The notes beneath the pieces were generated by a model. It was not told the origin of the DNA. It was given only the letters and a program-made list of their open reading frames with translations, and ran no database searches. A stretch of DNA of 64,000 nt from NCBI GenBank assembly GCA_963777605.1, contig CAVZRV010000008.1, forward strand, positions 192,001 through 256,000, given 5' to 3'. Source of the DNA: an uncultured Acidobacteriota bacterium (GTDB lineage Bacteria; Acidobacteriota; UBA6911; RPQK01; JAPXNP01). How positions within the stretch are numbered: position 1 is the stretch's first letter; each line of letters starts with the position of its first letter. Of this stretch, positions 44,388 through 62,997 are shown in pieces. The position numbers were made by a program, and so were the translations under genes.

Positions 44388-44733
44388 TAGATTGCCGGTT
44401 TATGCAGGGTTCGGCTGAGGAGAGGACGATCGGAGACGAAACCGGGATTTCTCCTCAGTATGGGATGCTCGCCACCTGAAACGCTTCGATCAGAAGCTCT
44501 TTGAGAACCCGCATGGCTGGCCCGACTGCTGAGATCTGCAACCGTTTGGGGTAACTCGTATCAGAGAAGTGTGGAGATTCTGAACTGGAATGGATGTTGC
44601 GTTTTCCACACGCACGCTTAGTCAGATTAGCGCTTTAGTTATTGACACGTAGTTTTTCCAGGGAACAGTTGATTTTTGTCGTGGGGCTAAACTTGGAGCG
44701 AAAGCCGCTGTTGCCTCAGCGGAGTCTTTGCCA

Positions 44734-46644
44734 ATGAATTCAACCAGCAACCTAATTGAGTCATCCGGTGCATCCTCTGGTCAGATTGAGACCAGACGAG
44801 TCAAAGAGCAGATCATCGAGATCGTCAGCGACTCCGGCGAGGGTGCGCAAACTTGCGGCCAGATGTTCGGGACCATTTGCGCAAAAATGGGGAACGGCGT
44901 CTGGACCGTTGAAATCATACCTGCCGAAATCGAGCCTCCCTATCGGTCGCGGGCCGGAGCGTCGGGGAACCGAATTCGTGTTGGTGCCAAGATGGTGACC
45001 AATGCCGGCGATGAAGCCGACGTGGTCATCGCCTTTAACGAACAGGTGCTTTACAGTCGAATCGACGTCGGTGCGCTTCGCCCCGGGACGATTGTTTTCC
45101 TGGATCAGGTCTGGAAGAACGATCCCTCTGAGGCTGTGCAGCGAGCATACGCCGATGCCTTTAAGGACTTCGAGGAGAAGGGTTACATCGTCATCGAGAT
45201 TCCTCTCCACGAAGAGACCCTCAATTTCACCGACGATCCCCGAAAGGGGAAGAACATGTGGGCGTTGGGGTTGCTCTGCTGCCTGTACAACTGCGACATG
45301 GATATCGCTCGCAGCGAGGTCCGTAAGAAATTCACGCGCAAGGGCGAGCAGGTGATCAACGTCAACCTGGAGATCCTCGAATCAGGCTACCAGTGGGCGC
45401 AGGAATTCATGACAGTTCGTTTCAGCGTCCCTCCTGAAATGCCTTCTACGCCGATGGTGGTCATGAACGGAAACCAGGCTGTCGGGCTGGGTGTCATGGC
45501 GGCCGGGATGGAACTTTGCGCCATGTACCCCATCACGCCGGCCACCTCCGCTTCCCATTACCTCTCGGCAGTGTTCAACACGGTTGGTGGATTCGTCCAT
45601 CAGGCCGAAGACGAAATCGCCGCAATAGGCTTCGCAATCGGCGCATCCTACGCCGGAAAAACCGCAGTGACCATCACCTCGGGCCCAGGCCTCGCACTGA
45701 AGACCGAGTTTTTGGGGCTGGCCGTGATGGCTGAAGTCCCCCTGGTGGTCGTGGTGGTTCAGAGGGGAGGCCCGTCAACCGGGTTGCCGACCAAGATTGA
45801 GCAGGGAGACCTGCTGGCGGTGCTCTTCGCCTCTCCAGGCGACAGCCCGAAAATCGTGATGGCCCCGGCGACGATCGAAGAGTGCTTTCACTTCATTGTC
45901 ACTGCCCGCAAGCTCGCCGAGGACTTTCGCGGTCCGGTCATGGTTCTGACCGACACGAACCTGGCGACCGGTCAGCAACCCTTCGCCCGCCCGAAGGTGA
46001 AGGAAGAGTGGCTTTCAGCGCCGATTGACCAGTCTGCCTGGGACAAGGAGATTGTTCCTTATGCGTGGGACCAGGAAACCGGTCTCTCCAGCCGGCCTCT
46101 TCCTGGACAGCGAGGTGGAGAGTATGTCCTGACGGGTCTGGCTCACGATGAGCGGAGCAAGGTTGCGTACGAGTCTGGGATCAACCAGCGGGCAATGGCG
46201 ATGCGGAGCCGCAAACTGGCGGCTTTGCACAAGAGTCTGAACCCGCCCGAAGTCTATGGCGACCAGGAAGGCGATTTGCTCCTGGTGACCTGGGGGTCAA
46301 CTCTCGGCGCCGCCCGGGAGGCAGTAGAACGGGTTCGAAATGACGGAGGAAATGTCTCGCACGTGCATTTGCGTTTCCTTTCGCCTCTCGAACCGGGTCT
46401 CAGGGAGATCTTCCGGCGGTTCAAACGGGTGCTGACGATTGAGATTAACTACTCCGACGATGTCGATGGAGTTTACATTACCGAGGAGAACAGACGCCGG
46501 TCACAACTGGCAAGGATATTGCGAGACGCGACCCTGGTGGATGTCGATTGCTGGTCGAAAGTACCGGGCAGCCCACTTCCTCCGGGCCGGATCGAGGAAG
46601 AGATTCGAAAGCGGCTGTCTTCGGCGAAGAAGGGACTGGATTGA
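44734..46644 (+). CDS. korA: 2-oxoacid:ferredoxin oxidoreductase alpha subunit (gamma-alpha fusion)
   Basis: SDSGEGAQ, IIPAEI, GKNMWALG, MNGNQA, YPITPA, QAEDEIAA, TSGPG, QRGGPSTGLPT, WGST; substrate specificity cannot be determined from sequence. Confidence 0.9.
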   Translation: MNSTSNLIESSGASSGQIETRRVKEQIIEIVSDSGEGAQTCGQMFGTICAKMGNGVWTVEIIPAEIEPPYRSRAGASGNRIRVGAKMVTNAGDEADVVIAFNEQVLYSRIDVGALRPGTIVFLDQVWKNDPSEAVQRAYADAFKDFEEKGYIVIEIPLHEETLNFTDDPRKGKNMWALGLLCCLYNCDMDIARSEVRKKFTRKGEQVINVNLEILESGYQWAQEFMTVRFSVPPEMPSTPMVVMNGNQAVGLGVMAAGMELCAMYPITPATSASHYLSAVFNTVGGFVHQAEDEIAAIGFAIGASYAGKTAVTITSGPGLALKTEFLGLAVMAEVPLVVVVVQRGGPSTGLPTKIEQGDLLAVLFASPGDSPKIVMAPATIEECFHFIVTARKLAEDFRGPVMVLTDTNLATGQQPFARPKVKEEWLSAPIDQSAWDKEIVPYAWDQETGLSSRPLPGQRGGEYVLTGLAHDERSKVAYESGINQRAMAMRSRKLAALHKSLNPPEVYGDQEGDLLLVTWGSTLGAAREAVERVRNDGGNVSHVHLRFLSPLEPGLREIFRRFKRVLTIEINYSDDVDGVYITEENRRRSQLARILRDATLVDVDCWSKVPGSPLPPGRIEEEIRKRLSSAKKGLD

Positions 46645-47600
46645 TGTACGGACTCAAGAAGGATTGGGTTCTTGAAAAACAGCCAAGGGTTTGTGTTCTG
46701 GAAGACTACCAGGGAGCGGAAGCGCGTTGGTGTCCGGGATGTGGAGACCATGCGGTACTGAACGCGGTGCAGCGGGTTGCGCGCGACCAGCAACTGCTTC
46801 CGGAGCGTACCGTGGTCGTTTCCGGGATCGGCTGCTCGAGCCGGTTCCCGCACTACATGAAGACCTACGGCTTTCACGGGTTGCACGGAAGAGCTCTGCC
46901 GGTGGCAACCGGAATCAAGAGCCGGCGGCCCGACCTGGAGATCTTCGTGATCACGGGCGACGGTGACTGTTGCGCTATTGGAACCGCTCACTGGATTCAT
47001 GCGATCCGTTACAACATGAACCTGACGGTCCTGCTCCTGGATAACAACATCTACGGGTTGACTAAAGCCCAGACCTCTCCGACGACTCGTACTTCCGAGC
47101 GGTCCAACACCCACCCGAAAGGATCATTTTTCGTTCCCTTGAACCCGATCTCTGTCGTTCTGGGAATCAGTAACGCGTCCTTCGTCGCTCAGACGGTGGA
47201 CTGGAACCCGCCTCATCTGTACGAGACGATCAAGGCAGCAAGGGAGCACAAGGGAACAGCTTTTGTCCGTGTTCTCCAGCGCTGTCCCCATTACACATCC
47301 CACGTGTTTGCAGAGGCACAGCACGACACCTCTCGCATCCTGTACCTCCAGCACCCCGACGGAATCAACGTTCCGGATCAGGTGGCGAAGACATTCAAGA
47401 ATCAGATGGTGCACGATCCCGCCAATTTGTCCGAAGCGCGCGATATCGCCGAGGAGCCGAACGAGGCGTTCCCGGTCGGCCTGATCTACTTGAATCGCCA
47501 TGCACAGCGATACGACGAGGTGACTTGTCAGGGGCTGGGGATGAGCCCGGTGAAGAAGATCGAAGCGATCGACAAGGCCCTCGATCGATTCATGGTCTAG
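46644..47600 (+). CDS. korB: 2-oxoacid:ferredoxin oxidoreductase beta subunit (TPP-binding)
   Basis: WCPGCGDH, SGIGCSSR, HGLHGRA, intact TPP motif GDGD...DNNIYG, LQRCP; TGATG coupling with the alpha subunit. Confidence 0.92.
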   Translation: MYGLKKDWVLEKQPRVCVLEDYQGAEARWCPGCGDHAVLNAVQRVARDQQLLPERTVVVSGIGCSSRFPHYMKTYGFHGLHGRALPVATGIKSRRPDLEIFVITGDGDCCAIGTAHWIHAIRYNMNLTVLLLDNNIYGLTKAQTSPTTRTSERSNTHPKGSFFVPLNPISVVLGISNASFVAQTVDWNPPHLYETIKAAREHKGTAFVRVLQRCPHYTSHVFAEAQHDTSRILYLQHPDGINVPDQVAKTFKNQMVHDPANLSEARDIAEEPNEAFPVGLIYLNRHAQRYDEVTCQGLGMSPVKKIEAIDKALDRFMV

Positions 47601-47627: not shown

Positions 47628-50600
47628 ATGGAAAACATTATGGGCAGGACGTCTGCCCGGGAGGCATCTCAGTTGAGAAGAACGCCCGAAATCGCGTCGG
47701 GAGAAGTGCTTGCTTCCGCTTTGGAGTGCGTTGAAGAACTCGAGCGGGCTATCTGCGGCGAGTCTGGGGTGGGGAGTCCCGCCTATGCGTTGGGACGGTC
47801 ACTTTCCGGACTCAGGTCGGCGGGTATCCGCACTGCGGAATGCCGGTGTCCAAATGGCCCCTCGAAGCCGACTCCCGTAGTCATTCACAGTCCGTCGTTC
47901 GCTGGCGTCGCGGAAGATGCCGGCTTGGTCCTCGTATCCGGATCGCACCAGGCGGCTCTCGAAAACTGCATCGTGGCCAGGAGGGTGGCCCAAACCCTGG
48001 GTATTCGTGTCGAGCACGTCATCGCACCCGGGACGGCTGACACCTTGGGTCTCGCTCGACTTCCAGAAACTGGGCAACTCGACAAACTCCTTGCCGAGTC
48101 CGGCGCCGATCCCTCACCGTCGGGCGATTTGGCCGCGGCGGTTGCTGCCGCGTTTGAAACGGTTCGAAGCATCGTGGGGAGCCGCACCTCGGCAGTCCGG
48201 TGCTCGGGCACGACGGACTCTCCGGTCTGTGTTGTAAGCCTGGGTGCCGGCAGTGCCTACTGCGATGAACTGGCTGAACTCCCGGGTGTTTCGATTCGCG
48301 CGATCACGGTAAACCAGTGTCGGCCGTTTCCGGCTGAAGATCTCAAGACTGCTCTTAAAGGTGCGGAGTCCGTGATTTTTGTCGCGGCGGAGGAGTCTCC
48401 TCTCCACCTCTGGTTTTCCAACGAGTTGAATGAACTGGGCGTTACTCCGGTGAAGACGGTGTTGCTTGAAGATCTTCCCGGTTCGGCTGAGGGCTTGGCT
48501 GGACTGCTTTCGGAGAAGCTTCCGCAGGAGCAACGCAAAGCTTTGGCGGCGGCACCGGCCAAGAGGGAAGTTCCCTCCCTGGCGATTGCAGTGCATCCAT
48601 CGGGATCCCGGGCCCGCAAGATCCTCCTGAGGACCGGCGCGACGTTGTGGACTGCACTGGGTCTCCAACCCGGCGATCTCGCCGTTGACGGGTCACGCGG
48701 CTGGACCGCGCTGCGGGCAGGCAAAGACTCTGCGGGACGTGAACTCGATCTGGTAGTTTTGTTCGAAGACCAATTGGCGGACTCAGCCCCGGACTTCGAA
48801 ATGATCCGCCGCGGTGGCGGGGTCATTCTGGTGGCCGGACAGAACCTGGAAGCTTCTTCCTCCTGGAGGAATCTGCCCAGGTCGATACGCACCCAGATCG
48901 AGCAGGGCAACCTTCGGCTCTGGTGGATCAATGTTTCGCAGGAGAATGGTTCGGAGTGCCGGCTCTTGTCCCGGGCGCTCGTGTCTGCGATGGCCTCCGC
49001 CCAAATGATTTCGGTCACCGGCCAGAGCCCGGTTTTTTCCCTTCACCAACTGGACCCGGGTGTGCTTGATTCCAGCGCCGGTCAAGAAATCGACTTCAGG
49101 ACCGGTGCCGGGCTTCCCGGAATGGAACGGCCGCGTGAGGATGCTGAAGCGGCGACGACGCTCCTCCGCCGACTGGTGGAATTTCACCTTGCCGGCACGA
49201 AGCCGGGAGATTCCGTAGCTGCTCCCCAGGTCAGTCCCATGATTCCGGCGGCAGTTCGTGCCGAGTCTCTCGGCGAATCCCATACCGTGTTTCCGTTCTA
49301 CCTTCCCGCTCCCTCTGCGGAGGACCGGCCGAGATCACTCGCGGAGTTATTCTCGGAGGCGCTGGGCAGTTCGGCAGCCACCACCGTGCTGGGAAGAGTG
49401 TTGCCGGATGTGCTGGCTGGACTGACGTCGGAGATTCCCGATGGCGGTTCTCTTTCGATGGATCGGCTGCGCCAGGCCGTAAAGGGACTTGAGGCCCGGA
49501 TTGATGTGAGCGCTGCCGGGAAGGTACAACTCTCGGGAGAACTGAAAACGGTTGAAGAGAGCTTGCCCGCGAAAGGTTCGGTGGTCGGTGTTGATGGCGA
49601 CACCTGGGCCGGCCTCTACCATTGGAGCCTCACACGGGAGCGCAGCGCGGTGCGCAACCGGCTGCTCTTGCAGGTCGAAAGGCTTCTGAACGATCTGGAA
49701 GCGCTCCTTCTCGCTGACGACAAGCTCAAGCCGGAATCGCGCACCGCACCCGCAATTCAGTCCTCGCTCGGGTTCGAGGGGACCCTGTTCATCAATGCAG
49801 GGCGCCTCTCGGGAATCATTCCCCCTGCGCAAGGGTCCCAGGGGCTTACGCCGGAACGGCGAGAGCGGGTCGCCGGGGTTTGTGCCAGCCTTCGCCGATT
49901 CATTGAAGAGTCCGCCCAGACCCCGGACCTGTACGTTTTTCAATCGGGTTCCCTGGAACACGAACTTGCCGGAGTAGTGACGGTGAGGTCTGAAGATCCA
50001 TTCGATGCCGCCCTGGGCCTGTTCGACGGTCTGGCCGCCAAGGTTATCGAAGCCATGAAGGCGGTTCGCGTGGGGAATCTGGAACTTTCGGGGGAATTCA
50101 ATCCGGAGGTCCACCAGCGGATTCTGGAAGGCTTCACCTGGGAGGCACTGAACGAAGATGAAGTGCTCCTGCTGCCGAGCATTCTGGTCGTGGAAAAGAT
50201 TACCGGACTGCCCCGTCGGACCCTTCCCGGGTTCCATCGACTGCTTCAGTCCGGCATGCCCATTCACGTGGCGGTCCTGATCGACGGGGCCGAGTGGTCG
50301 GATGACGACCTGCTGAAGCAGTTGAGGGGTGTTCTTCCGGATCCTGGCTACCTCGGCCTGGCTCACCGTGAAGCGTTCGTGCTGCAGTCGTCGGTCTGCC
50401 GTCCCGATCACCTGCTTGCCGGCCTCGGCCGCATGATGCGGGCACCCGGTCCGGGAGTCCTGGTGCTCGAATTTGCCAGTGCCCCTTCGGATTCGGCGCG
50501 AGCCTGGTCAGGTTGGCTTGCCGCCTGGCTGTCGCGTACGGTACCTTTTTACAGCTATGACCCGTGGAAGGGCGATTCCTGGGCGGACCGCTTCTCGGTC

Positions 50601-51509
50601 GACGGCAACCTCAATCCCGAGAGCGCCTGGGTAGTCACCGAGTTCGAGTGCCAGGATGCCAATGGGTCTGAACAGTCGGTTGCAGAGTCGATCACCTTCG
50701 CCCACTTTGCGGCCCTCGACAGTCGACTCCGGAGCCAGTTCTACGTTCTTCCCCACGAAATTGAGTCCGACCGGCTAATTCCGGTTGCGGAATATCTCGA
50801 TCGCCTCGACGAACTGCCCGAAGGCGCAGTCCCCTTCATATGGGTACTGGCGGACAAAGGTGAGAAAGTTCGTCGCGCCGTCATCACCCGGGACCTGTTG
50901 GCTGGATGCCGGGATCGCTCCCGTGCGTGGAGAATTCTCCAGGAGCTGGCCGGCCTGCGCAATGTTTACGTGGAGCGGGCGGTCAACACTGCTCTGGAAG
51001 AATCAGCTCGAAGGGCGCAAGTCGAACAGGATGCCGCCGTCAAGGCAGCACGCCGGGAAGGGGCGACGGAAGCGGTCGACAAGTTGGTCTCCGCACTTTC
51101 CAACCCCGATGCGCTTGTACGCGGTGCGGCTGTTGACACAGTTGCCCGACCGGCCGTAGCAATGCCGTCCACCGAATCGACTTCGGCGGCCCCCCAGGCG
51201 GAGGAACAATCTGAGCCCGCGGCTCCGGCGGCTGAACCGGAACCGGAAGAAGAAGAGCTTTCCGCCGAGCCCTATATCGATTCCTTTTTGTGCACGAGCT
51301 GCAACGACTGCATCAACCTCAACTCACGAATGTTCGGCTACAACAGTGACCGTCAGGCGTACATCGTGGATCCGTCGCAGGGCACGTTTTCGGAACTGGT
51401 TCGGGCGGCGGAATCGTGTCCGGCGAGTTGCATTCACCCGGGACTGCCTCGTCCCGGTGACAAAACCGCGACGCCTGAGCTCGTGGAACGAGCCAAAGCT
51501 TTTCAGTAG
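47628..51509 (+). CDS. Degenerate PFOR-like protein A with C-terminal single-cluster ferredoxin domain
   Basis: Remnants of PFOR domains I-III (SGSHQAALENCIVA, NQCRPFPAEDL), a TPP-domain-like region without GDG (LLLPSILVVE...AHREAFVLQS), a Pro/Glu/Ala linker, then CTSCNDC...ESCPASCIH. Confidence 0.7.
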   Translation: MENIMGRTSAREASQLRRTPEIASGEVLASALECVEELERAICGESGVGSPAYALGRSLSGLRSAGIRTAECRCPNGPSKPTPVVIHSPSFAGVAEDAGLVLVSGSHQAALENCIVARRVAQTLGIRVEHVIAPGTADTLGLARLPETGQLDKLLAESGADPSPSGDLAAAVAAAFETVRSIVGSRTSAVRCSGTTDSPVCVVSLGAGSAYCDELAELPGVSIRAITVNQCRPFPAEDLKTALKGAESVIFVAAEESPLHLWFSNELNELGVTPVKTVLLEDLPGSAEGLAGLLSEKLPQEQRKALAAAPAKREVPSLAIAVHPSGSRARKILLRTGATLWTALGLQPGDLAVDGSRGWTALRAGKDSAGRELDLVVLFEDQLADSAPDFEMIRRGGGVILVAGQNLEASSSWRNLPRSIRTQIEQGNLRLWWINVSQENGSECRLLSRALVSAMASAQMISVTGQSPVFSLHQLDPGVLDSSAGQEIDFRTGAGLPGMERPREDAEAATTLLRRLVEFHLAGTKPGDSVAAPQVSPMIPAAVRAESLGESHTVFPFYLPAPSAEDRPRSLAELFSEALGSSAATTVLGRVLPDVLAGLTSEIPDGGSLSMDRLRQAVKGLEARIDVSAAGKVQLSGELKTVEESLPAKGSVVGVDGDTWAGLYHWSLTRERSAVRNRLLLQVERLLNDLEALLLADDKLKPESRTAPAIQSSLGFEGTLFINAGRLSGIIPPAQGSQGLTPERRERVAGVCASLRRFIEESAQTPDLYVFQSGSLEHELAGVVTVRSEDPFDAALGLFDGLAAKVIEAMKAVRVGNLELSGEFNPEVHQRILEGFTWEALNEDEVLLLPSILVVEKITGLPRRTLPGFHRLLQSGMPIHVAVLIDGAEWSDDDLLKQLRGVLPDPGYLGLAHREAFVLQSSVCRPDHLLAGLGRMMRAPGPGVLVLEFASAPSDSARAWSGWLAAWLSRTVPFYSYDPWKGDSWADRFSVDGNLNPESAWVVTEFECQDANGSEQSVAESITFAHFAALDSRLRSQFYVLPHEIESDRLIPVAEYLDRLDELPEGAVPFIWVLADKGEKVRRAVITRDLLAGCRDRSRAWRILQELAGLRNVYVERAVNTALEESARRAQVEQDAAVKAARREGATEAVDKLVSALSNPDALVRGAAVDTVARPAVAMPSTESTSAAPQAEEQSEPAAPAAEPEPEEEELSAEPYIDSFLCTSCNDCINLNSRMFGYNSDRQAYIVDPSQGTFSELVRAAESCPASCIHPGLPRPGDKTATPELVERAKAFQ

Positions 51510-51530: not shown

Positions 51531-52382
51531 GTGGAACCAGTGATTACGGCTGCAATCATTATGACCGGTCTGGGTGTGGTCTTCGCTTCCATTCTGGCCA
51601 CCGCAGACCATCTCCTCCGAGTCGAAGAAGATCCGAGGCTCGAACAGGTGGAAGGCATGCTCCCGGGAAACAACTGTGGGGCATGCGGCGAGCCCGGTTG
51701 CCAGGCTTTCGCCGGACGTCTTGTCAGGGGGGAAGTCGCTCCTGGCAAGTGTACGGTCAGCACGGAAGAAGCCCTCGTCCAGATCGCCGGGTTTCTGGGC
51801 GTTGATGTCGGCGGTGAAGAGAAGCGTGTCGCACGGCTCAAATGTGCGGGCGGAGAGGGCCTGGTTGCCGATCTGGCAGCGTACAACGGCATTTCGTCCT
51901 GCAGGGGTGCCGTCGTGGTTGACGGCGGAGGACGTGCCTGTACATGGGGCTGCCTGGGACTGGGCGACTGTGAAACCGCCTGCACATTCGATGCGATTCA
52001 CATGAACTGGGAAGGGCTTCCGCAGGTCGATCCGAATCTTTGCACTGCTTGCGGCGACTGCGTGGGCGCCTGCCCCCTCGACCTTTTCACTGTCGTCCCC
52101 ATGTCTCACAATCCGTTCGTACAGTGCAATTCACCGCTGACCGGCGAAGCCGCCCGGTCGCGCTGCCCGGTCGCCTGTGACGCTTGCGGTCGTTGTGCGG
52201 CCGACGCGCCGGCAGGAGTCATCGAGATCGTAAATGGATTGCCGGTGATTCACTACGACCGCGAGGAGAAGCCGACGCAGAGATCCACCTGGCGATGCCC
52301 GACAGGTGCCATTACGTGGATTGAGGGCGAGCAGTTTTCCGAACCTCTAGTTCAAATCAGTAGGGAGCGAATCCGTGCGTAA
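51531..52382 (+). CDS. rnfB: Rnf complex subunit B
   Basis: N-terminal TM, LPGNNCGACGEPGC...C, RLKCAGG, CTWGCLGLGDCETACTFDAI, CTACGDCVGACP, CDACGRC...RCPTGAI. Confidence 0.9.
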   Translation: MEPVITAAIIMTGLGVVFASILATADHLLRVEEDPRLEQVEGMLPGNNCGACGEPGCQAFAGRLVRGEVAPGKCTVSTEEALVQIAGFLGVDVGGEEKRVARLKCAGGEGLVADLAAYNGISSCRGAVVVDGGGRACTWGCLGLGDCETACTFDAIHMNWEGLPQVDPNLCTACGDCVGACPLDLFTVVPMSHNPFVQCNSPLTGEAARSRCPVACDACGRCAADAPAGVIEIVNGLPVIHYDREEKPTQRSTWRCPTGAITWIEGEQFSEPLVQISRERIRA

Positions 52383-55300
52383 TCTCATATCCAAACTCCG
52401 GTTCGAGCGTTTAAGAAAGTTGTTGGGTGCCGGTGCAGCCGACCAGGGGAAAAAGACCGCAAAAACGGAACTTCTGGAGGTTCAGGAAGCTGTAGCTCTG
52501 GCCGAGGCCATGATCTGCGACATGATCGCGCATTGCTCCGGAGAAGAGTCTCCGGGATTCCAGGAGACCTCCAACGGATTCTCCTCGACCAATGCTTTTG
52601 GCCGACAGGTAGTGAGCGTCGATCTTCCCGGCGTGGCTGAGGGGATTGCCGCTGGTGCCGGTATGACCATGAGTGGGCTCCGATCTTCGGTCTTTCTTCC
52701 CGGTGACCACCTTTCCGAGGGTTATGCCCAGCTCCAATCGATCGCGAGCCGCTATGTCCCTTTGGTGTTGCACGCTGCCTTTCGTGAGGGTTTTGGCCCC
52801 GGCAGCAATCATGCCGGCTACCACGGGGCCGCGGACCTGGGCCTTTTCCAGGCAATGCCCCAGACGGTCCAGCAAGCCATCGACCTCACCTTTCTGTTCC
52901 ACTGGGTTGCCGAGCGGACGTTGATCCCCGGGCTCCTGGCCTTCGACCGCCGTGTCGCCGAGATGGCCGCGTTCCCGACGATCGATTCCATTCGGGAGTT
53001 CCTCGGTGCGCCCGATGCCTCGCTCGCGGCACCCAATCCGGCGCAACTGTTGTTGTTCGGACCAGAGCGACCGGGTGTCCCCGGTTGGTTCGACGTGGAC
53101 CGGCCGGTTTCCTTCGGCTCTCTCCAGGGGTCCAACGACGCGGCCAGCGCCGCGGTCGGCAGACAGGCCTTCTTTGCCGGGCACCTGCCCGAATTGCTCG
53201 ACGAGGGCATGGAGCGGCTCTCGAAATTGACCGGTCGTCCCCTCACCTTCCTGGAACAGGACGAGGTTGATCGGGCCGATTTCGTGCTCGTCACCCAGGG
53301 CAGCTCTTACGAAACCGCTCGGGCGGCCGCCTCCTACCTGAGACAGAGCAAGGGGCTGTCGGTTGGCGTCCTCGGCTTGACCTGGCTGCGTCCCTTCCCG
53401 TCGGCCCAACTCGCCCAGGCACTGCGTGGGAAGCGGGGCATTGCCGTACTCGAGTGTTCCTCGGTGGTGCTTTCCGACCAGGGGAGCCTGATGCGGGAGG
53501 TTCGCTCGGCGGCGGGCGCCCAAAGTGGCAACGCGACCTGGATTTCGGCCAGCTTTGGGCTTCACGGCCAACCGCTTTCGGCCGGCCAGGTCGTTGATTT
53601 GACCATGGAGCTGAAGGAAAAGAAGCCGCGCTCCAAAGTCTGGCTGGGGATCGTTTCCGGGCCCTCGAAGATCGGCGACTACCCCAAGCGGGAAAGCCTG
53701 GTGAAGTCCGTAGCGAGCGATTATCCCGAACTGACCCAGAACACGATTACCGGCCACGGCGTAGAAAAGCTAAGCGCCCAGGAACTGAAGACGGTTCAGT
53801 GGGTGGGTTCCTCCAGTCTGGAACCATCCGACGTCATCCGGCAACTCGTTGATCGTTGCTCCGACGTGGCGCGCGCCAAGATCAGGGGTTTCGGCTGGTA
53901 TCCGGAACCGGGCATCCTCTCGGTTCGTGTTTCGATGGGGCCCGACGAAATTCCGATTGCCGAGGCGGGAGCAGGCGTAGACGTGCTGCTTCTGGGACGC
54001 CTCGGCCTCGACCTGATCCACAACCCTCTCGCGGATCTCGGAGCAGGCGCCACGATCGTTGTTGAATCCGACCGTGCGGCCCAGGAAGTTTGGCATCTGA
54101 TGCCCGATTTCTGGAGATCAGAGGTGCGGCGCCTGAAATTGAAAATGTACAAGGTGGAGACGGGCTTCGACCAGTTGGCGGCGGCGGCCGGCGCAATCAT
54201 CTCGGGCTCGGTGGATCTCCCGTTCCCCGAGATTGAATGGAAGAACCTGGAAGACCCAGCGGGCGACCCGGATGACGTTCCGAAGCTCGTCCGTCGGGCC
54301 GGGGACGCCGGTTCGAGTTACAGCAACCTGCCCCGGTTCTGGGGTGAGGTCATGCAGCCGAAACGGGGCGGGATTTCCGAGAATTTTCCAGATCCCCTGG
54401 TTACCGCGGACGCTGTTCCACCGTACACTGCGGCACTGGCGCGCCCGCGGGGAACGGCGCTGCCATCTATGCCGGTTCTCGACCCCGAGAAGTGTACCGG
54501 TTGCGGTCACTGCTGGCCGGTCTGCCCCGATTCCGCGATTGGTGCCACCCTGCTGAGCCTGCAGGACTACCTGGATGTGGCGGCGGATCAGACGGGGGTT
54601 GAAGGGAAAGTGGCGGCCGCCCTCAAGCGCGCCCACCGTCCCATTGCGGCCCGCGTCGCAGTGCTGATTCGCGAGCGCAACCTGAAGACGGTCCCTGAGG
54701 AAATCTGGCTGGAGGCCTTCGCATCGGTGATCGGCAAAATTTCGGTGCCGGATGGAGAAATGCCCCAGTACAAAGCCGCCTTCCAGGCGACTGCAGAGAT
54801 GGCCCACCGCCTGTCTCCGGTAGTCACCGAGCCGCTCTATTCCAAGCTGGAGTCGGAAAGCCAAAGGTAGCGGCCAGATTCTCATTTTGGCCTTTAACCC
54901 GGACGCCTGCCAGGGATGCCAGCTCTGCATCATGAGCTGTCCCGAATCGGCCCTGCTGGCGATGGACCGGGCCGGAACGGTGAAGGAGGATGCCCGGGAA
55001 GGATGGAAAGTCTGGGAGAATCTTCCGGATACTCCGGGTAACGTCATCGAGAAGGTGGAGGCCGACCTGGAACTCGGCCAGCTGGCCGCCCGTTTTCTGA
55101 GCCGCCACAGTTCCCAGGTCCAAGCCGTCGGGAGTTTCGGCGAGCCCGGTTCGGGCGAACGGCTGGCCTGCCGGATTGTGAGTGGAATCGTCGAGTCCCA
55201 GCTCCAGAAACGGCTCGCCGACCAGGCGGCCGAAGCATCGAAACTGGCCGGCCAGTTGCGGGACCAGGTGCAGGGACAATTGGCGAAAGGTCTCACCGAG

Positions 55301-56683
55301 GCCGACCCGAAAGCAATCCAGTCGGCACTCGAGAGCCTGCCTCGCCACCGGGTGAGCCTGAGCGACCTGAGCGAACGCCTCTCCTCGTTTGGAAAGGCGG
55401 TCTCTCTCGATCCCGTCAAGACTCTTCGACTCGCGCAGACCGCGCATGACCTCGAAACGGAAGCCTGGCAGTTGACCGAAGGGCCCAACCGGCTGGGCCG
55501 TTCGCGGTTCAGCGTGGTTATCGTCAGCCATCGAATCGCCCGTTGGGCGGGCCGGTTCCCCAACCATCCCTACAACGCGCCCCTGGTCGTTGAACCTTCT
55601 CCGGAAGGCGCAGGTCTCGCGGTGGGGCTGGCCGAGGCGGCTGCACTGAAGCATGTCGACCGGGTCCGTACCTATCGTCGTGCGAACCTCTACCTGGAGA
55701 ATCCTTCGGATCTTCCGGGGCGGCTCGTCGACCTGGAAAACCTGACCTGGAGTGATCTGACCGCTGAAGAGCGGGCTACTTGCCCGCCGCTGCTCGTGTT
55801 TGCCGATGAGAGTGCCTTGAGGCGGCAGGGCCTTGGAGCCCTGGGCAGCCTGCTTTCGAGCAAGATCCCCGTAAAACTCATTCTCCTCGACACCCGTTTC
55901 GTGAATCTGGCAACCCCGGAACCGGCCCTGTTTGGTCTCGGTTTCCCGGGGGCCTTCGTTCTCAGTGGTTCACTTGGAGCGCTGGTACACCTCGAGAACA
56001 ACCTTGAAGAGGCCATCAAATTCTCCGGTCCGGCCGTGATCCACATTCACGTTCCGATTCCGCAGGAACAGGGTTTCGAACCCTCCAAGACGATTGAGAG
56101 AGCGCGGTTGGCCGTGCAGGCCAGGGTTCAGCCGCTGTTCGTCTTCAATCCCGCAGCAGAAGGTGCGTTCGGTCTTCGGGTCTCTGTCGAAGGCAATCCC
56201 GGGATAGATTCTCCCTGGGGCGGTTGCGATCCGATCCAGTGGGCCTTCGAAGAGGAACGGTTCAAACCGTTCTTCGTTCCCCTGTCCGAGGATGTCCCAT
56301 CCACCGACTGGAGGGAATATGTTGGACTGGCGGAAGAAGATCGCCGGGACACGGTACCTTCCTACGAGGATGCTGGCGGCAACACCTGGAAGATCGACCG
56401 TCGGCTGGCGGCGTTCGCCGAACGTCGAAGTTCGATTTGGGAGATCTACCAGGAAATCGGAGGCATCGCCAGTCCTCACCTGGATCGGCTTCGCTCGGAA
56501 GTCGAGCAGGAAGTCACGGACCAGAGCCGGGCGGAGTTCGAGGAAACGAAGGCGGGATACGAAGCGCGCATCAGCCAACTGGAACAGGAATCCGATACCA
56601 GGCTCGCCGGACAATTGCGAGAGCGTCTCCTGGTTCTGGCCGGGTTCGGCTCCAAAACCCATACGGATGACACTAATGAGTAG
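52375..56683 (+). CDS. Degenerate full-length PFOR-like protein B (about 1435 aa) with two CxxCxxCxxxCP motifs; split by a 1-nt frameshift at AAA 54863-54865
   Basis: PFOR domain order is visible (SGLRSSVF, YVPLVLH, TVQQAIDL, TWLRPFP, SFGL); CTGCGHCWPVCP at 54493 and CQGCQLCIMSCP at 54908; removing one A gives a continuous ESQGSGQILILAFNPDAC. Confidence 0.75.
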
Positions 56684-58013
56684 CGCAGTAACTGCTGAGA
56701 CAGCAACCAAGACTTTCCGTCACGGGGTTCACCCGCCGGAGAGAAAGGACTCGACTGAAGGCCGCCCGATTGAACGGGTTCCCTTCGGGAAGGAGTTCAC
56801 GCTTCCGCTCTCCCAACACATCGGTGCGCCTTCGGTTGCAATCGTGAAGCCGGGTCAGCGCGTGGTCCGGGGGGAGACGATCGCCAATCCGGGCGGATTC
56901 GTCTCCACCTGCCTCCACGCTCCCGTGACCGGAACGGTGACGGCGGTAGAACCCCGCCTGCACCCGAACGGAAAGATGATGCCTGCGATCGTGATCGAGG
57001 CCGATCCCTTTTCCTCTCAGAGAGTCGTTCCTCACAAGGTTCCTGCTCCTGAAGGCCTGAGCAATGGCGACCTGGTCAAGCAGGTCCAGATGTCCGGGCT
57101 GGTCGGACTCGGGGGAGCCGCCTTTCCAAGCCACGTCAAGCTCTCGCTTCCCGAGAAGCGCCGGATCGAGTTTGTGGTGATCAACGGCTGTGAGTGTGAG
57201 CCCTATCTGACCTGTGATCACCGAGTTATGGTGGAGCGCGCGGAGTTGGTCATCCGCGGCACCCAGATCATGATGAACAACCTGGGTGCCAATCGAGCCT
57301 ACATCGGGATCGAGTCAAACAAGCCGGACGCCGCCGAGGCATTGAAAGCCGTTGCCCCGTCAAACATTGAAGTCGTTGTGGTCCAGGTCAAGTATCCCCA
57401 AGGCGCCGAGAAGATGCTGATCGACGCAATTCTCGAGAAAGAGGTCCCGAGCGGGGGCATTCCCCTCGACATCGAAATTTTGACCAATAACGTCGGGACG
57501 ACGGCGGCCCTGGCCGACTGGTTTGACCGCGGCATTCCGCTTCTGGAGCGGGTAGTCACGGTAACCGGACCCGGAATCCCCTACCCGCGAAATCTGCTGG
57601 TCCCGCTCGGCACCCCAGTCTCGGCGATCGTGGACTACTGCGGCGGATTGTCCGCCGAAACCCGTCAGGTGATCATGGGTGGTCCTATGATGGGAATGGC
57701 CCAGAAGACACTGGACGTGCCGGTAATGAAGGGCACATCGGGAATTCTGGCCTTGACCGAAGTATTTCAGGCAGTCGCCCAGGAATATCCCTGCATTCGC
57801 TGTGCCCGCTGTCTCGAGGCCTGTCCCATGTTTCTTAATCCAACACGGTTGGCCCACCTCGCCAAGTTCGAGCGCGTCGATGATTTGAAGGATTATCACG
57901 TTCTCGACTGCTTCGAGTGCGCTTCCTGTTCATTTGTCTGCCCGTCGAATATCCCGCTGGTGCAGTGGATTCGGATGGGTAAGGCGGCGGTTCGAGAGGC
58001 ACAGAAGAAATGA
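56676..58013 (+). CDS. rnfC: Rnf complex subunit C
   Basis: FRHGVHPPERK, LSQHIGAP, HAPVTG, GLVGLGGAAFPSHVK, NGCECEPYLTCD, KYPQGAEK, MGGPMMG, CIRCARCLEACP, CFECASCSFVCP. Confidence 0.96.
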   Translation: MSSAVTAETATKTFRHGVHPPERKDSTEGRPIERVPFGKEFTLPLSQHIGAPSVAIVKPGQRVVRGETIANPGGFVSTCLHAPVTGTVTAVEPRLHPNGKMMPAIVIEADPFSSQRVVPHKVPAPEGLSNGDLVKQVQMSGLVGLGGAAFPSHVKLSLPEKRRIEFVVINGCECEPYLTCDHRVMVERAELVIRGTQIMMNNLGANRAYIGIESNKPDAAEALKAVAPSNIEVVVVQVKYPQGAEKMLIDAILEKEVPSGGIPLDIEILTNNVGTTAALADWFDRGIPLLERVVTVTGPGIPYPRNLLVPLGTPVSAIVDYCGGLSAETRQVIMGGPMMGMAQKTLDVPVMKGTSGILALTEVFQAVAQEYPCIRCARCLEACPMFLNPTRLAHLAKFERVDDLKDYHVLDCFECASCSFVCPSNIPLVQWIRMGKAAVREAQKK

Positions 58014-59041
58014 GTATCGCGCGCAAGCACGACCTGACACTTTCCACTTCACCCTTTCTCCACGCCCAGTCCACGACGCCGCGGATCATGGCCGACGTGC
58101 TGTTGGCGACGGTCCCGGTGATCCTGGCTGCGTGCTGGTTTTTCGGACTGGGCATTCTGCTCGTGGTCGCAGCTGCCACAGCCGGGGCGGTCTTTACCGA
58201 GTGGATCTTTACCCGGGGGCAACACCCCAGCCCTCTAGTCGACAACAGCGCGTTGCTCACCGGAGTTCTTTTGGGATTGGTATTGCCGCCGAGCTTTCCA
58301 CTCTGGATGGCCTTTCTCGGCGGAGTGGCCGCAATCGGGCTGGGCAAACTGATCTGGGGTGGACTCGGACAGAATGTTTTCAATCCGGCGCTGGTAGGAA
58401 GGGCCTTCCTCCAGGCGTCGTTTCCGACCGCCATTACCAGCTGGACGGCCCCGTCTCAGGGGCTCTTCTCCGTGCCCGCGAAGATCTTCACGGTTCCGCT
58501 CATGCAATCGACGGCGGACACGGTGTCGGCGGCGACTCCACTGGGTTTGTTCAAATTCTCCAGCGAGTTCACCGATGTCGTGTCGCTTTTTATCGGAAAG
58601 ATCGGCGGCTCAATTGGCGAGACGAGTGCCCTGATTCTGATCCTGTGCGGTCTTTGGCTCGGATTCAAGCGAATTTTCGACTGGCGGCTCCCGGCCAGCA
58701 CCCTTTTGTCCGTCGCCGTATTCAGTGGAATCTTCTGGGCCTGGAACCCGAGCAAATTTCCGAGTCCTCTGTTCATGTTGTTTTCCGGCGGAATTCTGTT
58801 TGCCGCGGTATTTATGGTGACCGATCCAGTCTCGACTCCGACTACCCGTAAGGGCGCCTGGATATTCGGGATTGGTGTCGGATTCCTGGTTGTGATCATC
58901 CGGCTCTTCGGCGGACTCCCGGAAGGTGTCATGTACGCGATTCTCTTGATGAACGCGGTGAACCCTTATATCAATCATTACACTCAGCCTCGCATTTTCG
59001 GCGGGGCCAAGAAGAAGTTGGCCGGAGCCGAAGGGAAATGA
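58010..59041 (+). CDS. rnfD: Rnf complex subunit D
   Basis: SPFLH...IMADV, DNSALLTG, GGLGQNVFNPA, FMN site SAATP, GSIGETS, MVTDPVS, PEGVMYAILLMN. Confidence 0.96.
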   Translation: MSIARKHDLTLSTSPFLHAQSTTPRIMADVLLATVPVILAACWFFGLGILLVVAAATAGAVFTEWIFTRGQHPSPLVDNSALLTGVLLGLVLPPSFPLWMAFLGGVAAIGLGKLIWGGLGQNVFNPALVGRAFLQASFPTAITSWTAPSQGLFSVPAKIFTVPLMQSTADTVSAATPLGLFKFSSEFTDVVSLFIGKIGGSIGETSALILILCGLWLGFKRIFDWRLPASTLLSVAVFSGIFWAWNPSKFPSPLFMLFSGGILFAAVFMVTDPVSTPTTRKGAWIFGIGVGFLVVIIRLFGGLPEGVMYAILLMNAVNPYINHYTQPRIFGGAKKKLAGAEGK

Positions 59042-59098: not shown

Positions 59099-59740
59099 AT
59101 GAGTTCAGCAAAACGACCAGGACCGGCACGGCTGATTCTGACCCTCGGGGGGGCCGGATTCATCTCGGGGTTGCTCCTGGTAACCGTATACCTGGCCACC
59201 AAGCCGATCATCGAGCGAAACCAGGCCGAAGCTCTGGAGGCCGCAATCTATCGAGTTGTCCCGGGATCAACTACGCGAAAGGCATTTGAGCTGAAAGACG
59301 GCAAGCTGGTTGCCGTTGAGTCGAGCGGAAACGCGCTGCCTTCCGGCGAGGTGATCTACGGGGCCTACAATGACCAGGACCAGTTGCTCGGCTATGCCAT
59401 CCCGACCGAAGGAGCCGGTTTCCAGGACACCATCAAGCTTATCTACGGATTTGATCCCCACGACCAGAAGATTGTTGGAATGGAAGTCCTGGACAGTCGG
59501 GAGACTCCGGGACTTGGCGACAAGATCAGCAAGGATCAGCACTTCCTGGACAACTTCAAGGACCTTGCCGTGGAACCAGAGGTGGTCGCGGTGAAATCGG
59601 GGACAAAGACCAAGCAGAATGAAGTCGACTCGATCAGCGGTGCCACGATTTCGTCCAAGGCCGTAGCCAAGATTATCGAACAGGCCAATCTCCGCTACCT
59701 TCCGGCTATTAACGCGGCCCCACAGGAGCAATCGAAATGA
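59099..59740 (+). CDS. rnfG: Rnf complex subunit G (FMN-binding)
   Basis: N-terminal TM, GFQDTI, ETPGLG, covalent FMN motif DSISGATISS. Confidence 0.93.
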   Translation: MSSAKRPGPARLILTLGGAGFISGLLLVTVYLATKPIIERNQAEALEAAIYRVVPGSTTRKAFELKDGKLVAVESSGNALPSGEVIYGAYNDQDQLLGYAIPTEGAGFQDTIKLIYGFDPHDQKIVGMEVLDSRETPGLGDKISKDQHFLDNFKDLAVEPEVVAVKSGTKTKQNEVDSISGATISSKAVAKIIEQANLRYLPAINAAPQEQSK

Positions 59741-60378
59741 GTACGCGAGAGAGGTTATACGACGAGACGGTCAAGGGATTCTGGAAAGAGAACCCGGTTT
59801 TCGTACAGTTGCTGGGCCTGTGTCCTGCCCTGGCCGTCACGAATTCGGCAATAAACGGGCTCGCCATGGGCTCGGCTACAACGTTCGTTCTGGTGGGTTC
59901 CAGTTTCCTGGTTGGATTGCTGAGGAACCAGATCCCCAAACAGGTCCGGATTACCAGCTTTATCGTTATCATCGCGACCTTTGTAACTGTTGCCGACCTG
60001 ACCCTCCAGGCCATGTTGCCCACCGTTCACAAAGAACTGGGTGCGTTCATCGCGCTGATCGTCGTCAACTGCATCATCCTTGGCCGCCAGGAAGCGTTTG
60101 CGTCGCGCAACCCGCTCGGCCTGGCCTTAGGAGATGCCTTCGGAATGTCTCTGGGGTTCACCTTTGCCCTGCTGACCGTGGGCAGCATCCGTGAAATCCT
60201 TGGATCCGGATCCCTGTTCGGTTATGACCTCTTCGCGGGCCACTTCGAGCCCTGGGTCATCATGATCCTGCCCCCGGGCGGATTTCTCACCCTGGGAGTG
60301 CTGCTCATAATCTTTGCGCAGGTCAAGAAGAACCGCGCCCTCAAGGCTGCCATGCGACTCGAGAAGGAGGCCGCATAA
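59737..60378 (+). CDS. rnfE: Rnf complex subunit E
   Basis: ENPVFVQLLGLCPALAVT, LIVVNCIILGRQEAFA, IREILGSG, ILPPGGF. Confidence 0.96.
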   Translation: MSTRERLYDETVKGFWKENPVFVQLLGLCPALAVTNSAINGLAMGSATTFVLVGSSFLVGLLRNQIPKQVRITSFIVIIATFVTVADLTLQAMLPTVHKELGAFIALIVVNCIILGRQEAFASRNPLGLALGDAFGMSLGFTFALLTVGSIREILGSGSLFGYDLFAGHFEPWVIMILPPGGFLTLGVLLIIFAQVKKNRALKAAMRLEKEAA

Positions 60379-60956
60379 TGGGAAACTACCTCTGGATTTT
60401 CGTCTCGGCGGCGATTATCAACAACTTCACCCTGGCCTACTTTCTCGGGCTCTGTCCATTTTTCGGAGTCAGCAAGAAGATTGAGACCGCCTTTCGACTC
60501 GGCCTTGCGAACATCTTTGTCATGGTGATCACGTCGGTTTGCGCCTGGGCGCTGAACACGTTCGTGCTCCCCTACGCGCCATATCTCCGGCTGATGACCT
60601 TCATTGTGGTTATCGCGAGTACCGTTCAGTTCGTGGAGATGGTGATCAAGAAGCTGAGCCCCGCACTGTTCAAGGCGCTTGGGATCTACCTTCCCCTGAT
60701 CACGACGAACTGTGCCATCCTGGCGCTGGCGCTGTTTCAGACCAACCGGGGCTACGGGTTCGGCGAAGGCCTCGTGTTCGCGGTCGGTGCCGGCGTTGGC
60801 CTGACCCTCGCTCTGGTTCTCATGGCGGGTGTCCGGGAGGAAGCCGAACTCTCGACTATCCCTGACGTTCTGCAGGGCGCCGGCATGGCTTTTCTGATTG
60901 CCGGGATCCTCTCCATGGCCTTCATGGGCTTTGCCGGGCTTTTCAGCGGAGCTTAG
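60378..60956 (+). CDS. rnfA: Rnf complex subunit A
   Basis: NNFTLAYFLGLCPFFGVS, VQFVEM, LGIYLPLITTNCAIL, AGILSMAFMGF. Confidence 0.96.
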   Translation: MGNYLWIFVSAAIINNFTLAYFLGLCPFFGVSKKIETAFRLGLANIFVMVITSVCAWALNTFVLPYAPYLRLMTFIVVIASTVQFVEMVIKKLSPALFKALGIYLPLITTNCAILALALFQTNRGYGFGEGLVFAVGAGVGLTLALVLMAGVREEAELSTIPDVLQGAGMAFLIAGILSMAFMGFAGLFSGA

Positions 60957-61167: not shown

Positions 61168-61209
61168 TTTCCACGGCCGCCTGACTCGGCGCCCGTGCGG
61201 GAGATGACA

Positions 61210-61605
61210 CTAGCCGTTGACCAGATATTCGTCGATGAGGGCCTTGGCTTCGGCGATCTGGTCGGTTCCTATTGCCACGAAGGCGAAGTCGTGCTCCCGA
61301 CGGATGAATCGGACACTCCTCAGGTCGATGTTGGCCTCTTTGAGGCGCATCGCAACTTTAGCCAGTGCGCCCGGCTCATCTTTGAGCCGAACCAGCAGTG
61401 CGTCCTCGGTGATTGCCTGAAATCCGGCGTCGCGGAGACTTTCGAGTGCGTCGTTGTAGCGATCGACGGTCAGTTCTACGATGGCGGTGTCTTGAACTTC
61501 CTCAGCGTCGATCGTCTCAATGTTGATCCCCCGCGCAGCCAGCACAGCAGAGATATCCGCCAACAGCCCGGCACGGTTCGCGGTGACCACCGCTATCGAT
61601 CTCAT
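61210..61605 (-). CDS. Tandem ACT-domain protein
   Basis: NRAGLLADISAVLAARGINI and DEPGALAKVAMRLKEANIDL; AGGAG SD. Confidence 0.9.
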   Translation of the reverse strand: MRSIAVVTANRAGLLADISAVLAARGINIETIDAEEVQDTAIVELTVDRYNDALESLRDAGFQAITEDALLVRLKDEPGALAKVAMRLKEANIDLRSVRFIRREHDFAFVAIGTDQIAEAKALIDEYLVNG

Positions 61606-61629
61606 TTCGTTCTCCTGTCTGCTTCTTTC

Positions 61630-62805: not shown

Positions 62806-62845
62806 CCTCGGCTCCTTCCGAATTCACTGGTTCGATCCCAGCATA

Positions 62846-62862
62846 GCCGATTTCAAATCGGC
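62846..62862. promoter_or_regulatory. 17-bp palindrome GCCGATTT-C-AAATCGGC abutting a minus-strand -10 (TATGCT, 62840-62845)
   Basis: Perfect 8-bp inverted repeat in the divergent region between the decarboxylase and the symporter. Confidence 0.5.
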
Positions 62863-62997
62863 CGCCTAGTGACAGGACGCCGGCCTGCCTGCGTGCCTGT
62901 TGATTAAATCCGGCTGCTGTCGGAGGATGATCGAAATGGAATGGTTCTGCGCTGAGCAAAGGGATCTCACTGACGGGACAAACGGGCGCTGTCACTC

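Follow-up and report, generated by a model that had tools for sequence, protein, structure and literature searches.

The DNA analysed here, called the window, is a stretch of 64,000 nucleotides from contig CAVZRV010000008.1 of assembly GCA_963777605.1, obtained from an uncultured Acidobacteriota bacterium, and positions refer to it unless another sequence is named. It carries a gene cluster (Table 1) in which a large coding region related to pyruvate:ferredoxin oxidoreductase (PFOR), here named PFL2, sits between rnfB and rnfC, downstream of a second PFOR-like gene, PFL1, and of two genes coding for the subunits of a KorAB-like 2-oxoacid oxidoreductase. The PFL2 start codon, GTG 52375, follows a GGGAG located 8 nucleotides upstream and overlaps the rnfB stop codon (52380-52382) by 8 nucleotides. 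An overlap of the same length links the PFL2 stop codon (56681-56683) to the ATG of rnfC at 56676. An earlier reading of the sequence, termed below the original prediction, had proposed that PFL2 is a full-length PFOR paralog deprived of its catalytic signatures, kept as an electron conduit and overlapped between rnfB and rnfC. This placement is correct and recurs in related loci.

Table 1. Features of the kor-rnf cluster in the window
Feature	Position	Strand	Evidence or remark
korA-like gene, 2-oxoacid:acceptor oxidoreductase alpha subunit	44728..46644	+	NCBIfam TIGR03710, 531 bits, cut-off 482.75
korB-like gene, beta subunit	46548..47600	+	TIGR02177, 239 bits, under cut-off 261.9
PFL1, 1293-aa PFOR-like paralog	47628..51509	+	hhalign with PFL2 family and with long PFOR
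PFL1 C-terminal single-cluster ferredoxin domain, residues 1217-1270	51276..51437	+	Pfam Fer4_13, 30.7 bits, E 5.1e-7
rnfB	51531..52382	+	Pfam FeS and Fer4; NCBIfam RnfB models, E 1e-53 to 4e-58, below cut-offs
PFL2 N part, 828 codons, frame 1; PFOR domains I-IV and first half of domain V	52375..54858	+	
HCSGEE at the place of the YPITP loop	52531..52548	+	N-part residues 53-58; alignment with long PFOR
Val codon where domain I of PFOR has its cofactor-activating Glu	52633..52635	+	HMMER alignment to 6cin; alignment with long PFOR
Ferredoxin motif 1, CTGCGHCWPVCP	54493..54528	+	
Frame break, one extra base within GAGTCGGAAAGCC	54850..54862	+	DNA alignment with relatives
PFL2 C part, 607 aa, frame 2; rest of domain V, domain VI with helical insert, C-terminal helix, tail RLLxLAG[FY]	54860..56683	+	
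Ferredoxin motif 2, CQGCQLCIMSCP	54908..54943	+	
GEPGSGER at the place of the proximal-cluster CxGCGE	55139..55162	+	Opposite SCMGCGEK of long PFOR
FADESA at the place of MGGDGA (thiamine pyrophosphate/Mg motif)	55799..55816	+	
HVPIP at the place of YTPCQ (fourth proximal ligand)	56048..56062	+	
rnfC, probable start ATG 56676	56676..58013	+	TIGR01945, 526.9 bits, above cut-off; homology from residue 141 of longer ORF
rnfD	58010-59041	+	
rnfG	59099-59740	+	
rnfE	59737-60378	+	
rnfA	60378-60956	+	

PFL2 is covered in the window by two open reading frames (ORFs), whose junction is treated below. The first matches the Pfam models PFOR_II (58.6 bits), POR_N (weakly, 29.8 bits) and one Fer4, and the second a single Fer4. 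NCBIfam gives matches below threshold only, to PorA-type, PorB-type and PFOR models; TIGR02176 (nifJ) scores 63.1 bits on the N part, for a cut-off of 911.35, and has no match in the C part. No model of another enzyme family in Pfam or NCBIfam was matched. The profile of the PFL2 family extends this homology to the solved homodimeric PFORs of Moorella thermoacetica (6cin_A, E 2.5e-47) and Desulfovibrio africanus (7plm_A and 1b0p_A, E about 2e-36), the alignment leaving out the N-terminal half of domain VI. AlphaFold2 models were built from alignments of 31 relatives for the N part and 34 for the C part, with mean predicted local distance difference test (pLDDT) scores of 79.3 and 84.8. Superposition with VIA-align places residues 30-689 of the N-part model on 6cin_E 2-670 (Z 39.9, 587 residues aligned, root-mean-square deviation (rmsd) 3.8) and residues 1-535 of the C-part model on 6cin_A 724-1170 (Z 32.5, 363 aligned, rmsd 4.1). 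The N-part model also superposes on the alpha subunit of oxalate oxidoreductase, 5c4i_A (Z 41.4, 364 aligned, rmsd 2.2).

According to these models, PFL2 keeps the whole PFOR fold with domains I to VI in their order and, as in the Moorella (6CIN) and Desulfovibrio (1B0P/7PLM) enzymes, two CxxCxxCxxxCP motifs in domain V. These two motifs are those of the medial and distal clusters. PFL2 differs from the solved enzymes by the absence of the YPITP loop, of the activating Glu, of GDG..NN and of the proximal-cluster cysteines, and by three additions. About 125 residues separate its ferredoxin motifs as a spacer, domain VI carries an insert of about 100 helical residues (helices 99-206 of the C part), and the C-terminus is a long helix (539-593) whose last residues are the conserved RLLxLAG[FY]. 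Homology to the subunits RnfA, B, C, D, E, G and H is limited to a match of the ferredoxin motifs to RnfB (7zc6_B, E 5e-7), the body being that of a PFOR. Both extremities of PFL2 (52375-52430 and 56620-56683) code for conserved short helices not present in canonical PFOR. The N-terminal one, in a part of the model of low confidence, is basic (MRNLISKLRFERLRKLL in the window, ...RLYRRLFG in gammaproteobacterial members). These terminal helices are possible docking peptides.

The genome also codes for a catalytically intact protein that serves as reference for the replacements in PFL2. A search of the genome with PFOR models found an open frame for a 1688-residue protein, called here the long PFOR, on another contig (C7:980129-985195 of G000, the genome under study; L069:1130-6196). 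Its motifs VYPITP, CMGCGEK, STGCSS, GGDG...DTQVYSNTGGQ and TPCQ are all intact, and its amino acid identity to PFL2 members is 24-29% over the full length. Where the long PFOR has VYPITP, PFL2 has AHCSGE, and CMGCGEK, GCSS, GGDG, DTQVYSNTGGQ and TPCQ are replaced by EPGSGER, RIAR, ADES, DTRFVNLAT and VPIP, respectively. The four positions of the proximal-cluster cysteines are occupied in the window by E, S, I and I. The activating Glu, found in EGEH of the long PFOR, is a Val in PFL2 and V, P, A or other residues across the family. Every replacement listed in the original prediction is found opposite the matching motif of the long PFOR: HCSGEE for YPITP, GEPGSGE for CxGCGE, PPLLVFADESA (55784-55816) for GGDG, LLDTRFVN (C-part residue 342) for DTxxYSNTGGQ, and HVPIP, without cysteine, at the last proximal ligand. 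Two further losses, of the Glu and of the third cysteine, come in addition to that list. Pfam models POR and TPP_enzyme_C match the long PFOR but none of the PFL2 members tested. An hhalign comparison of the PFL2 C part with the KorB family agrees with the long-PFOR alignment at GDG, DNN and the fourth cysteine; its probability is 6% and it is not used as support.

These losses are common to the whole family. The stretch at the place of YPITP and domain III are poorly conserved among PFL2 proteins. Not one of the 34 aligned relatives has a cysteine in the CxxC or the fourth-ligand position, and both glycines that flank the Asp of GDG are lost in 32 of them. The substitutions are thus shared by the homologs and are not the decay of a lone copy. 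In a search of 1.84 billion cluster representatives, a profile of the C part matched 3506 at E<=1e-3; of these, 2117 reach E<=1e-10 and 1186 reach E<=1e-30. Raw counts of the GGDG and CxxCGE patterns are misleading in such a set, since gammaproteobacterial members have a GGDG shortly before PGSGE and since ferredoxin motif 1 contains a CxxCGE; profile-aligned columns were therefore used, taken from 147 of the best 150 representatives. Not one of the 147 has both CxxC cysteines, and only five have a cysteine as fourth ligand. The position of the GDG Asp is acidic in 31/34 closer relatives and holds D or E in only 69/147 of the best representatives. A preserved Mg site was rejected on this ground, the acidic residue being rather a local trait.

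Loss of PFOR catalysis in PFL2 is very probable from this comparison of sequences. With neither PFOR-type thiamine pyrophosphate (TPP) binding and activation nor a proximal cluster, PFL2 would not itself be a 2-oxoacid oxidoreductase, and the view of the original prediction that it is a pseudoenzyme derived from PFOR is supported by motif losses relative to an intact protein of the same genome. The PFL2 proteins form a family that is maintained yet lacks the chemistry of PFOR. The residues that replace the motifs raise the question of a novel activity, since the remodelled pocket of domains I and VI could bind another metal, a cofactor or a metabolite for catalysis or sensing linked to Rnf. 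Glu..Ser stands in place of the CxxC cysteines in 127/147 representatives, Ser in place of the fourth ligand in 121/147, the site reads E[PA]GSGE[RK] in 32 of the 34 close relatives, and the acid at the GDG position is held by most of the latter; the whole fold of 1400 residues is, moreover, under purifying selection. However, the Glu that universally activates TPP is gone, the acid is not kept in the wider family, domain III and the YPITP region are poorly conserved, and no model of another enzyme family was hit. We consider such a new enzyme or ligand binder quite unlikely.

The long PFOR also informs on the origin of PFL2. It has the same domain V spacer of about 125 residues, the helical insert of domain VI and the C-terminal helix, to which a tethered C-terminal Fer4_13 domain is added that is common to PFL1 and absent from PFL2. 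Its best stretch scores 293.7 bits, under the TIGR02176 cut-off. It differs from PFL2 by every catalytic motif and by its location outside any rnf operon. The original prediction had remarked that the spacer is much longer than in canonical PFOR, which holds; the spacer is not particular to the pseudoenzyme, since the catalytically intact protein carries it, and is a trait of the subfamily. PFL2 is best explained as a descendant of a one-subunit PFOR of this "long" kind, which is the likely parent type of both PFL1 and PFL2. No characterisation of the 1688-residue protein was found in the literature searched.

Substitution rates and cysteine patterns inform on what selection has kept. The less saturated PFL2 pairs have ratios of non-synonymous to synonymous substitutions (dN/dS) of 0.11-0.26 (0.106 at dS 0.43; 0.257 at dS 0.57), indicating purifying selection in the family. 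When the window copy is compared with its nearest relative, the N part has a ratio of 0.128 and the C part one of 0.112, values for which dS is saturated. Both CxxCxxCxxxCP motifs are intact in the window, as the original prediction stated, and lie 126 residues apart; all four cysteines are present in motif 1 of 29/31 and in motif 2 of 32/34 aligned members. Ferredoxin folds with two [4Fe-4S] clusters cross-ligate, each cluster drawing ligands from both motifs. A clade represented by loci L023 and L024 (proteins P0020-P0023) has motif 1 without its first three cysteines and with the fourth, and motif 2 without the fourth and with the first three. Because of cross-ligation, one cluster is left in this clade without any of its four ligands, whereas the other keeps its full set. 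Therefore at least one cluster would be under selection and two would not be obligatory. It is plausible that PFL2 is retained as a 2[4Fe-4S] conduit.

The same clade bears on an explanation that dispenses with electron transfer through PFL2. PFL2 and PFL1 could be purely structural, assembly or regulatory subunits of this Rnf variant, whose clusters would be relics or sensors of redox state or oxygen, KorAB feeding electrons directly to RnfB or to the ferredoxin of PFL1. The clade without one domain V cluster is still under purifying selection (L023-L024 dN/dS 0.087, at a dS of 1.48 that is near saturation), the PFL1 body has no cluster, and the short helices conserved at both ends of PFL2 are of a docking kind. 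Yet both ferredoxin motifs are complete in nearly all members over three phyla, and the one-cluster clade has kept exactly the four ligands of the remaining cluster, which argues for selection on at least one cluster. We find a purely structural role unlikely.

The copy of PFL2 in the window is itself interrupted. The original prediction took it for a full-length gene; the ORF listing and translation show that 52375-56683 is not one open gene and holds two ORFs in different frames. The first (52375-54870, frame 1) has 831 codons and ends at the TAG 54868-54870. The second frame is open from 54824 to 56683, overlaps the first by 47 bases (54824-54870) and has TTG 54887 as its first start codon. 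Both are colinear with homologs of about 1430 residues, to which frame 1 is homologous up to ...LYSKLESE and frame 2 from AKGSG onward, a colinearity that holds only if reading passes from frame 1 into frame 2 once the Glu codon 54856-54858 has been read. At this place the window has, within GAGTCGGAAAGCC, one base more than all five aligned relatives (5/5). The read-through product, of about 1435 residues, is what is called PFL2 here. Of the 43 related loci holding both halves, 42 are open across the junction without a change of frame, the sole exception (L044) being in an assembly with many breaks that affect neighbouring genes as well. A word-indexed search with the 831-aa ORF found 40 proteins including the window's own, and 32 of the 39 others are 1360-1449 residues long with end-to-end coverage.

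A programmed +1 ribosomal frameshift yielding full-length PFL2 would be compatible with the 47-base overlap of the frames and with the colinear product. It is nevertheless highly improbable, the related loci being unbroken at the junction save the one in a fragmented assembly; no known shift signal was seen, though none was looked for. The extra base may be a real mutation or an assembly error. Only four public sequencing runs share words with the genome, in small proportion (0.06-0.10), and over 54300-55400 they gave no contig of the same organism covering 54832-54859; the only piece derived from reads near the break (54860-54999) differs at 18 positions and belongs to a relative. Among 30 relatives there is no near-identical genome, the best having 71% nucleotide identity.

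If the break is genuine, the gene is a real and recent pseudogene in this organism, whatever the family does elsewhere; recent, because the other cluster genes are open. The extra base itself argues for this, as does the lack of a convincing ribosome-binding site or start for the second ORF. Other odd genes are found in the assembly. The porB of a cluster of the four-subunit type of pyruvate oxidoreductase (L007:2622-2990; G000 contig C7, about 907.5 kb) stops after 122 residues, just past GDG, and about 270 bases separate its end from the next gene, the gene being truncated or mis-assembled. A second dnaE-like gene (G000 contig C8:297542-300475) matches its model end to end with two in-frame TGA codons. 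On the other side, dN/dS is equally low in the two halves, all family-invariant residues are kept in both, the ten remaining cluster genes are all unbroken, and the gain of one base in a short run is also typical of assembly error. The open state of rpoC, rpoB and dnaE in the assembly excludes neither reading. We see a pseudogene as a serious possibility that falls somewhat short of even odds.

PFL1, encoded upstream of rnfB, was not mentioned in the original prediction, nor was the conservation of korAB. Its only match to family models is the C-terminal Fer4_13. hhalign aligns it with the PFL2 family (probability 100, E 1.5e-72, 1065 columns) and with the long PFOR, the C-terminal ferredoxin included (probability 100, E 9.9e-77, 1224 columns). 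Judged from these alignments, PFL1 is a full-length relative, more degenerate than PFL2. Its body has no Fe-S motifs, and the only CxxCxxC is C-terminal in 19/19 members. The ferredoxin domain, preceded by an acidic linker, has invariant cysteines at positions 1222, 1225, 1228, 1264 and 1268. Gammaproteobacterial PFL1 proteins are of about 830 residues and lack the N-terminal third. By their motifs, the Fe-S parts of the two proteins are complementary: PFL1 keeps the tethered ferredoxin and PFL2 the pair of domain V.

A scan of one genome per species gave 45 loci, all from metagenome-assembled genomes and assigned to groups from the record titles. Thirteen are from Acidobacteriota, 10 from delta/Myxococcales, 1 from Spirochaetales and 21 are of Gammaproteobacteria type (Thiohalomonadaceae, Sedimenticola, Chromatiales, Woeseiaceae, Piscirickettsiaceae and others). 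The recurring gene order, read by tblastn with the window proteins, is korA-korB-PFL1-rnfB-PFL2-rnfC-D-G-E-A, and all eleven parts are present in 16/20 loci of at least 22 kb. PFL1 ends at most 400 nucleotides upstream of rnfB in 34/34 loci, rnfB is directly upstream of PFL2 in 36/37 testable loci, and rnfC is found within 600 nucleotides downstream of PFL2 in 29 of 34. In 24/26 loci korB is found at most 2.5 kb upstream of PFL1, and a korA ortholog is upstream in most of the related loci. The loci missing from these counts are L024, L030, L033, L052, L054, L057, L058 and L059, each described below. In four gammaproteobacterial loci rnfC is 2.2-3.5 kb downstream of PFL2, one of them (L059) being cut, and sucC and sucD stand between the two genes (L052:14675-16705; L057:8413-10457; L058:10175-12216; L059:16481-18522). 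This insertion of the genes of succinyl-CoA synthetase ties the cluster to the 2-oxoglutarate/succinyl-CoA step. L057 also has a glucose/sorbosone dehydrogenase gene between rnfC and rnfD. No rnfC was found in the DNA examined of L054. A deltaproteobacterial genome has a fused ORF of 2431 codons (L030:7427-14722) in which some 800 additional residues precede the PFL2 N part and a portion of the C part, with no rnf or kor genes within 10 kb on either side.

Some details concern the neighbours of PFL2 in the window. The listed korB-like ORF overlaps korA by 97 bases and the columns invariant in its family start at M33; the true start is probably, from this conservation, ATG 46644, which gives a one-base overlap with the korA stop. 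The motifs CPGC, GIGCSS, TGDGD...DNN and RCP of its product are all intact. Only one rnfC above the family cut-off is found in the whole genome. Just past rnfA, an ORF of 570 codons (61195-62907) has no match in Pfam or NCBIfam and a counterpart in 0/45 related loci.

The presence of PFL1 and the conservation of korAB shift the reading of PFL2 from a lone conduit to a part of a KorAB-Rnf module. Rnf is usually pictured as taking its electrons from free ferredoxin, and two-subunit 2-oxoacid:ferredoxin oxidoreductases such as KorAB are pictured as needing the same carrier. A review describes KorAB-type enzymes as having one cluster only and no domain V (PMC13768988), so that KorAB needs an external electron carrier. 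Between KorAB and Rnf, and at no other place, the operon codes for the two dead PFOR bodies, one bearing the fixed two-cluster module and the other the tethered ferredoxin. We privilege the hypothesis, with a probability of about 50%, that PFL2 is a non-catalytic scaffold and electron wire that couples KorAB to Rnf. KorAB, probably a 2-oxoglutarate:ferredoxin oxidoreductase without ferredoxin domain of its own, would be the 2-oxoacid end of the path and RnfB the electron entry of Rnf. Between them PFL2 would work with PFL1 as a docking platform and a short electron wire. No free ferredoxin would in this manner be needed to couple the oxidation of the 2-oxoacid, or its reversal, to NAD(H) and to ion translocation. 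PFL1 and PFL2 may pair as a pseudo-symmetric heterodimer, which is proposed because PFOR is a homodimer. That these proteins associate and pass electrons along this path is inferred from the order of the genes, their overlaps and the complementary Fe-S motifs; the substrate is an inference as well. A prediction of the complex between RnfB 30-283 and PFL2 690-1431 (P0003), computed with alignments, had a score of 0.00, for a mark of 0.32, and counts neither way.

Several observations weigh against this coupling role. The acidobacterial clade of L023, L024 and L033 (P0020-P0023) has lost one of the domain V clusters, and korAB is absent from the 10 kb examined upstream of PFL1 in L024 and L033, L023 being too short to tell; neither two clusters nor an adjacent korAB are therefore obligatory. 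The replacement residues E, S and S and the motif [PA]GSGE[RK] are strongly conserved and could mark a new ligand site, to which the frequent acid at the GDG position of closer relatives may be added, though it fades in the wider family. Two proteins of 1300-1400 residues are a large investment for an adaptor. The substrate specificity of KorAB is putative, only the subfamily model passing its cut-off. Lastly, the window copy is broken and may be non-functional in this organism.

A bolder form of the coupling hypothesis would assemble KorAB, PFL1, PFL2 and RnfABCDEG in one membrane-bound, ferredoxin-free and ion-coupled 2-oxoglutarate:NAD+ oxidoreductase or, in reverse, a 2-oxoglutarate synthase driven by the ion gradient. 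The PFL1/PFL2 heterodimer, as a dead counterpart of the PFOR homodimer, would be its platform and domain V of PFL2 the fixed wire, while the PFL1 ferredoxin would swing as an arm from KorB to RnfB and back. The complementary Fe-S parts kept by PFL1 and PFL2 would then be the trace of a division of labour between them. This single machine is a tentative proposal, which we hold to be somewhat unlikely.

Related arrangements have appeared in the literature. In the work on the genome of the Solemya velum symbiont, a gammaproteobacterial sulfur oxidiser, a pyruvate:ferredoxin oxidoreductase gene is placed between rnfB2 and rnfC2 (PMC4287430); the placement is that of PFL2, and membership of the family is inferred from it only. 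A transcriptome study of Candidatus Endoriftia reports that the expression of a "PFOR-like" gene falls together with that of a dimeric korAB under sulfide limitation (PMC11636981). This would fit a partner of korAB, and the gene is a putative PFL2 member. The two papers either take the gene for a functional PFOR that feeds electrons of pyruvate to Rnf or do not decide on its role. A 2019 paper mentions KorAB and reverse tricarboxylic acid (TCA) cycle genes for RIFOXYD12_FULL_61_37, the genome that is the source of our locus L049 (PMC6315080). Passages of a review on Rnf and Nqr (PMC12174285) and of the November 2026 review on PFOR diversity (PMC13768988) describe no dead or rnf-embedded PFOR. 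Full-text literature searches gave no description of a pseudoenzyme PFOR in an rnf operon, of the second paralog or of the eleven-gene cluster. The rnfB-PFOR-rnfC placement is in print once; the wider picture here is of two dead PFORs, complementary in their Fe-S parts, within a korAB-rnf operon that occurs across phyla.

Other proteins offer parallels to PFL2. The delta subunits PorD and KorD and the polyferredoxin RnfB, to which PFL2 has weak matches, have modules with two [4Fe-4S] clusters that pass electrons between a partner and a TPP enzyme or ferredoxin. They are small proteins or domains, whereas the module of PFL2 sits on the body of a dead enzyme of 1400 residues. In NuoG/Nqo3 of complex I, a large domain derived from a molybdopterin enzyme has lost its cofactor and acts as a scaffold, while Fe-S clusters of the subunit are part of the electron wire. 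The analogy with PFL2 is one of principle only, fold and complex being unrelated.

PFL2 is a clear example of an enzyme whose fold has been retained as a scaffold once every catalytic site had gone. It is also a warning that a "pyruvate-ferredoxin oxidoreductase" annotation inside an rnf operon is no ground for entering a PFOR in a metabolic reconstruction. The operon occurs in at least three phyla and sets its two dead PFOR copies between KorAB and Rnf, which suggests that a dedicated and perhaps hard-wired route links 2-oxoacid chemistry, at about -500 mV, to the pool of NAD(H) and ion gradient. Such a route bears on an additional conservation of energy in the TCA cycle of sediment Acidobacteriota and Myxococcota. 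It bears as well on the supply of low-potential electrons in sulfur-oxidising Gammaproteobacteria that have reverse TCA genes and live with some oxygen present.

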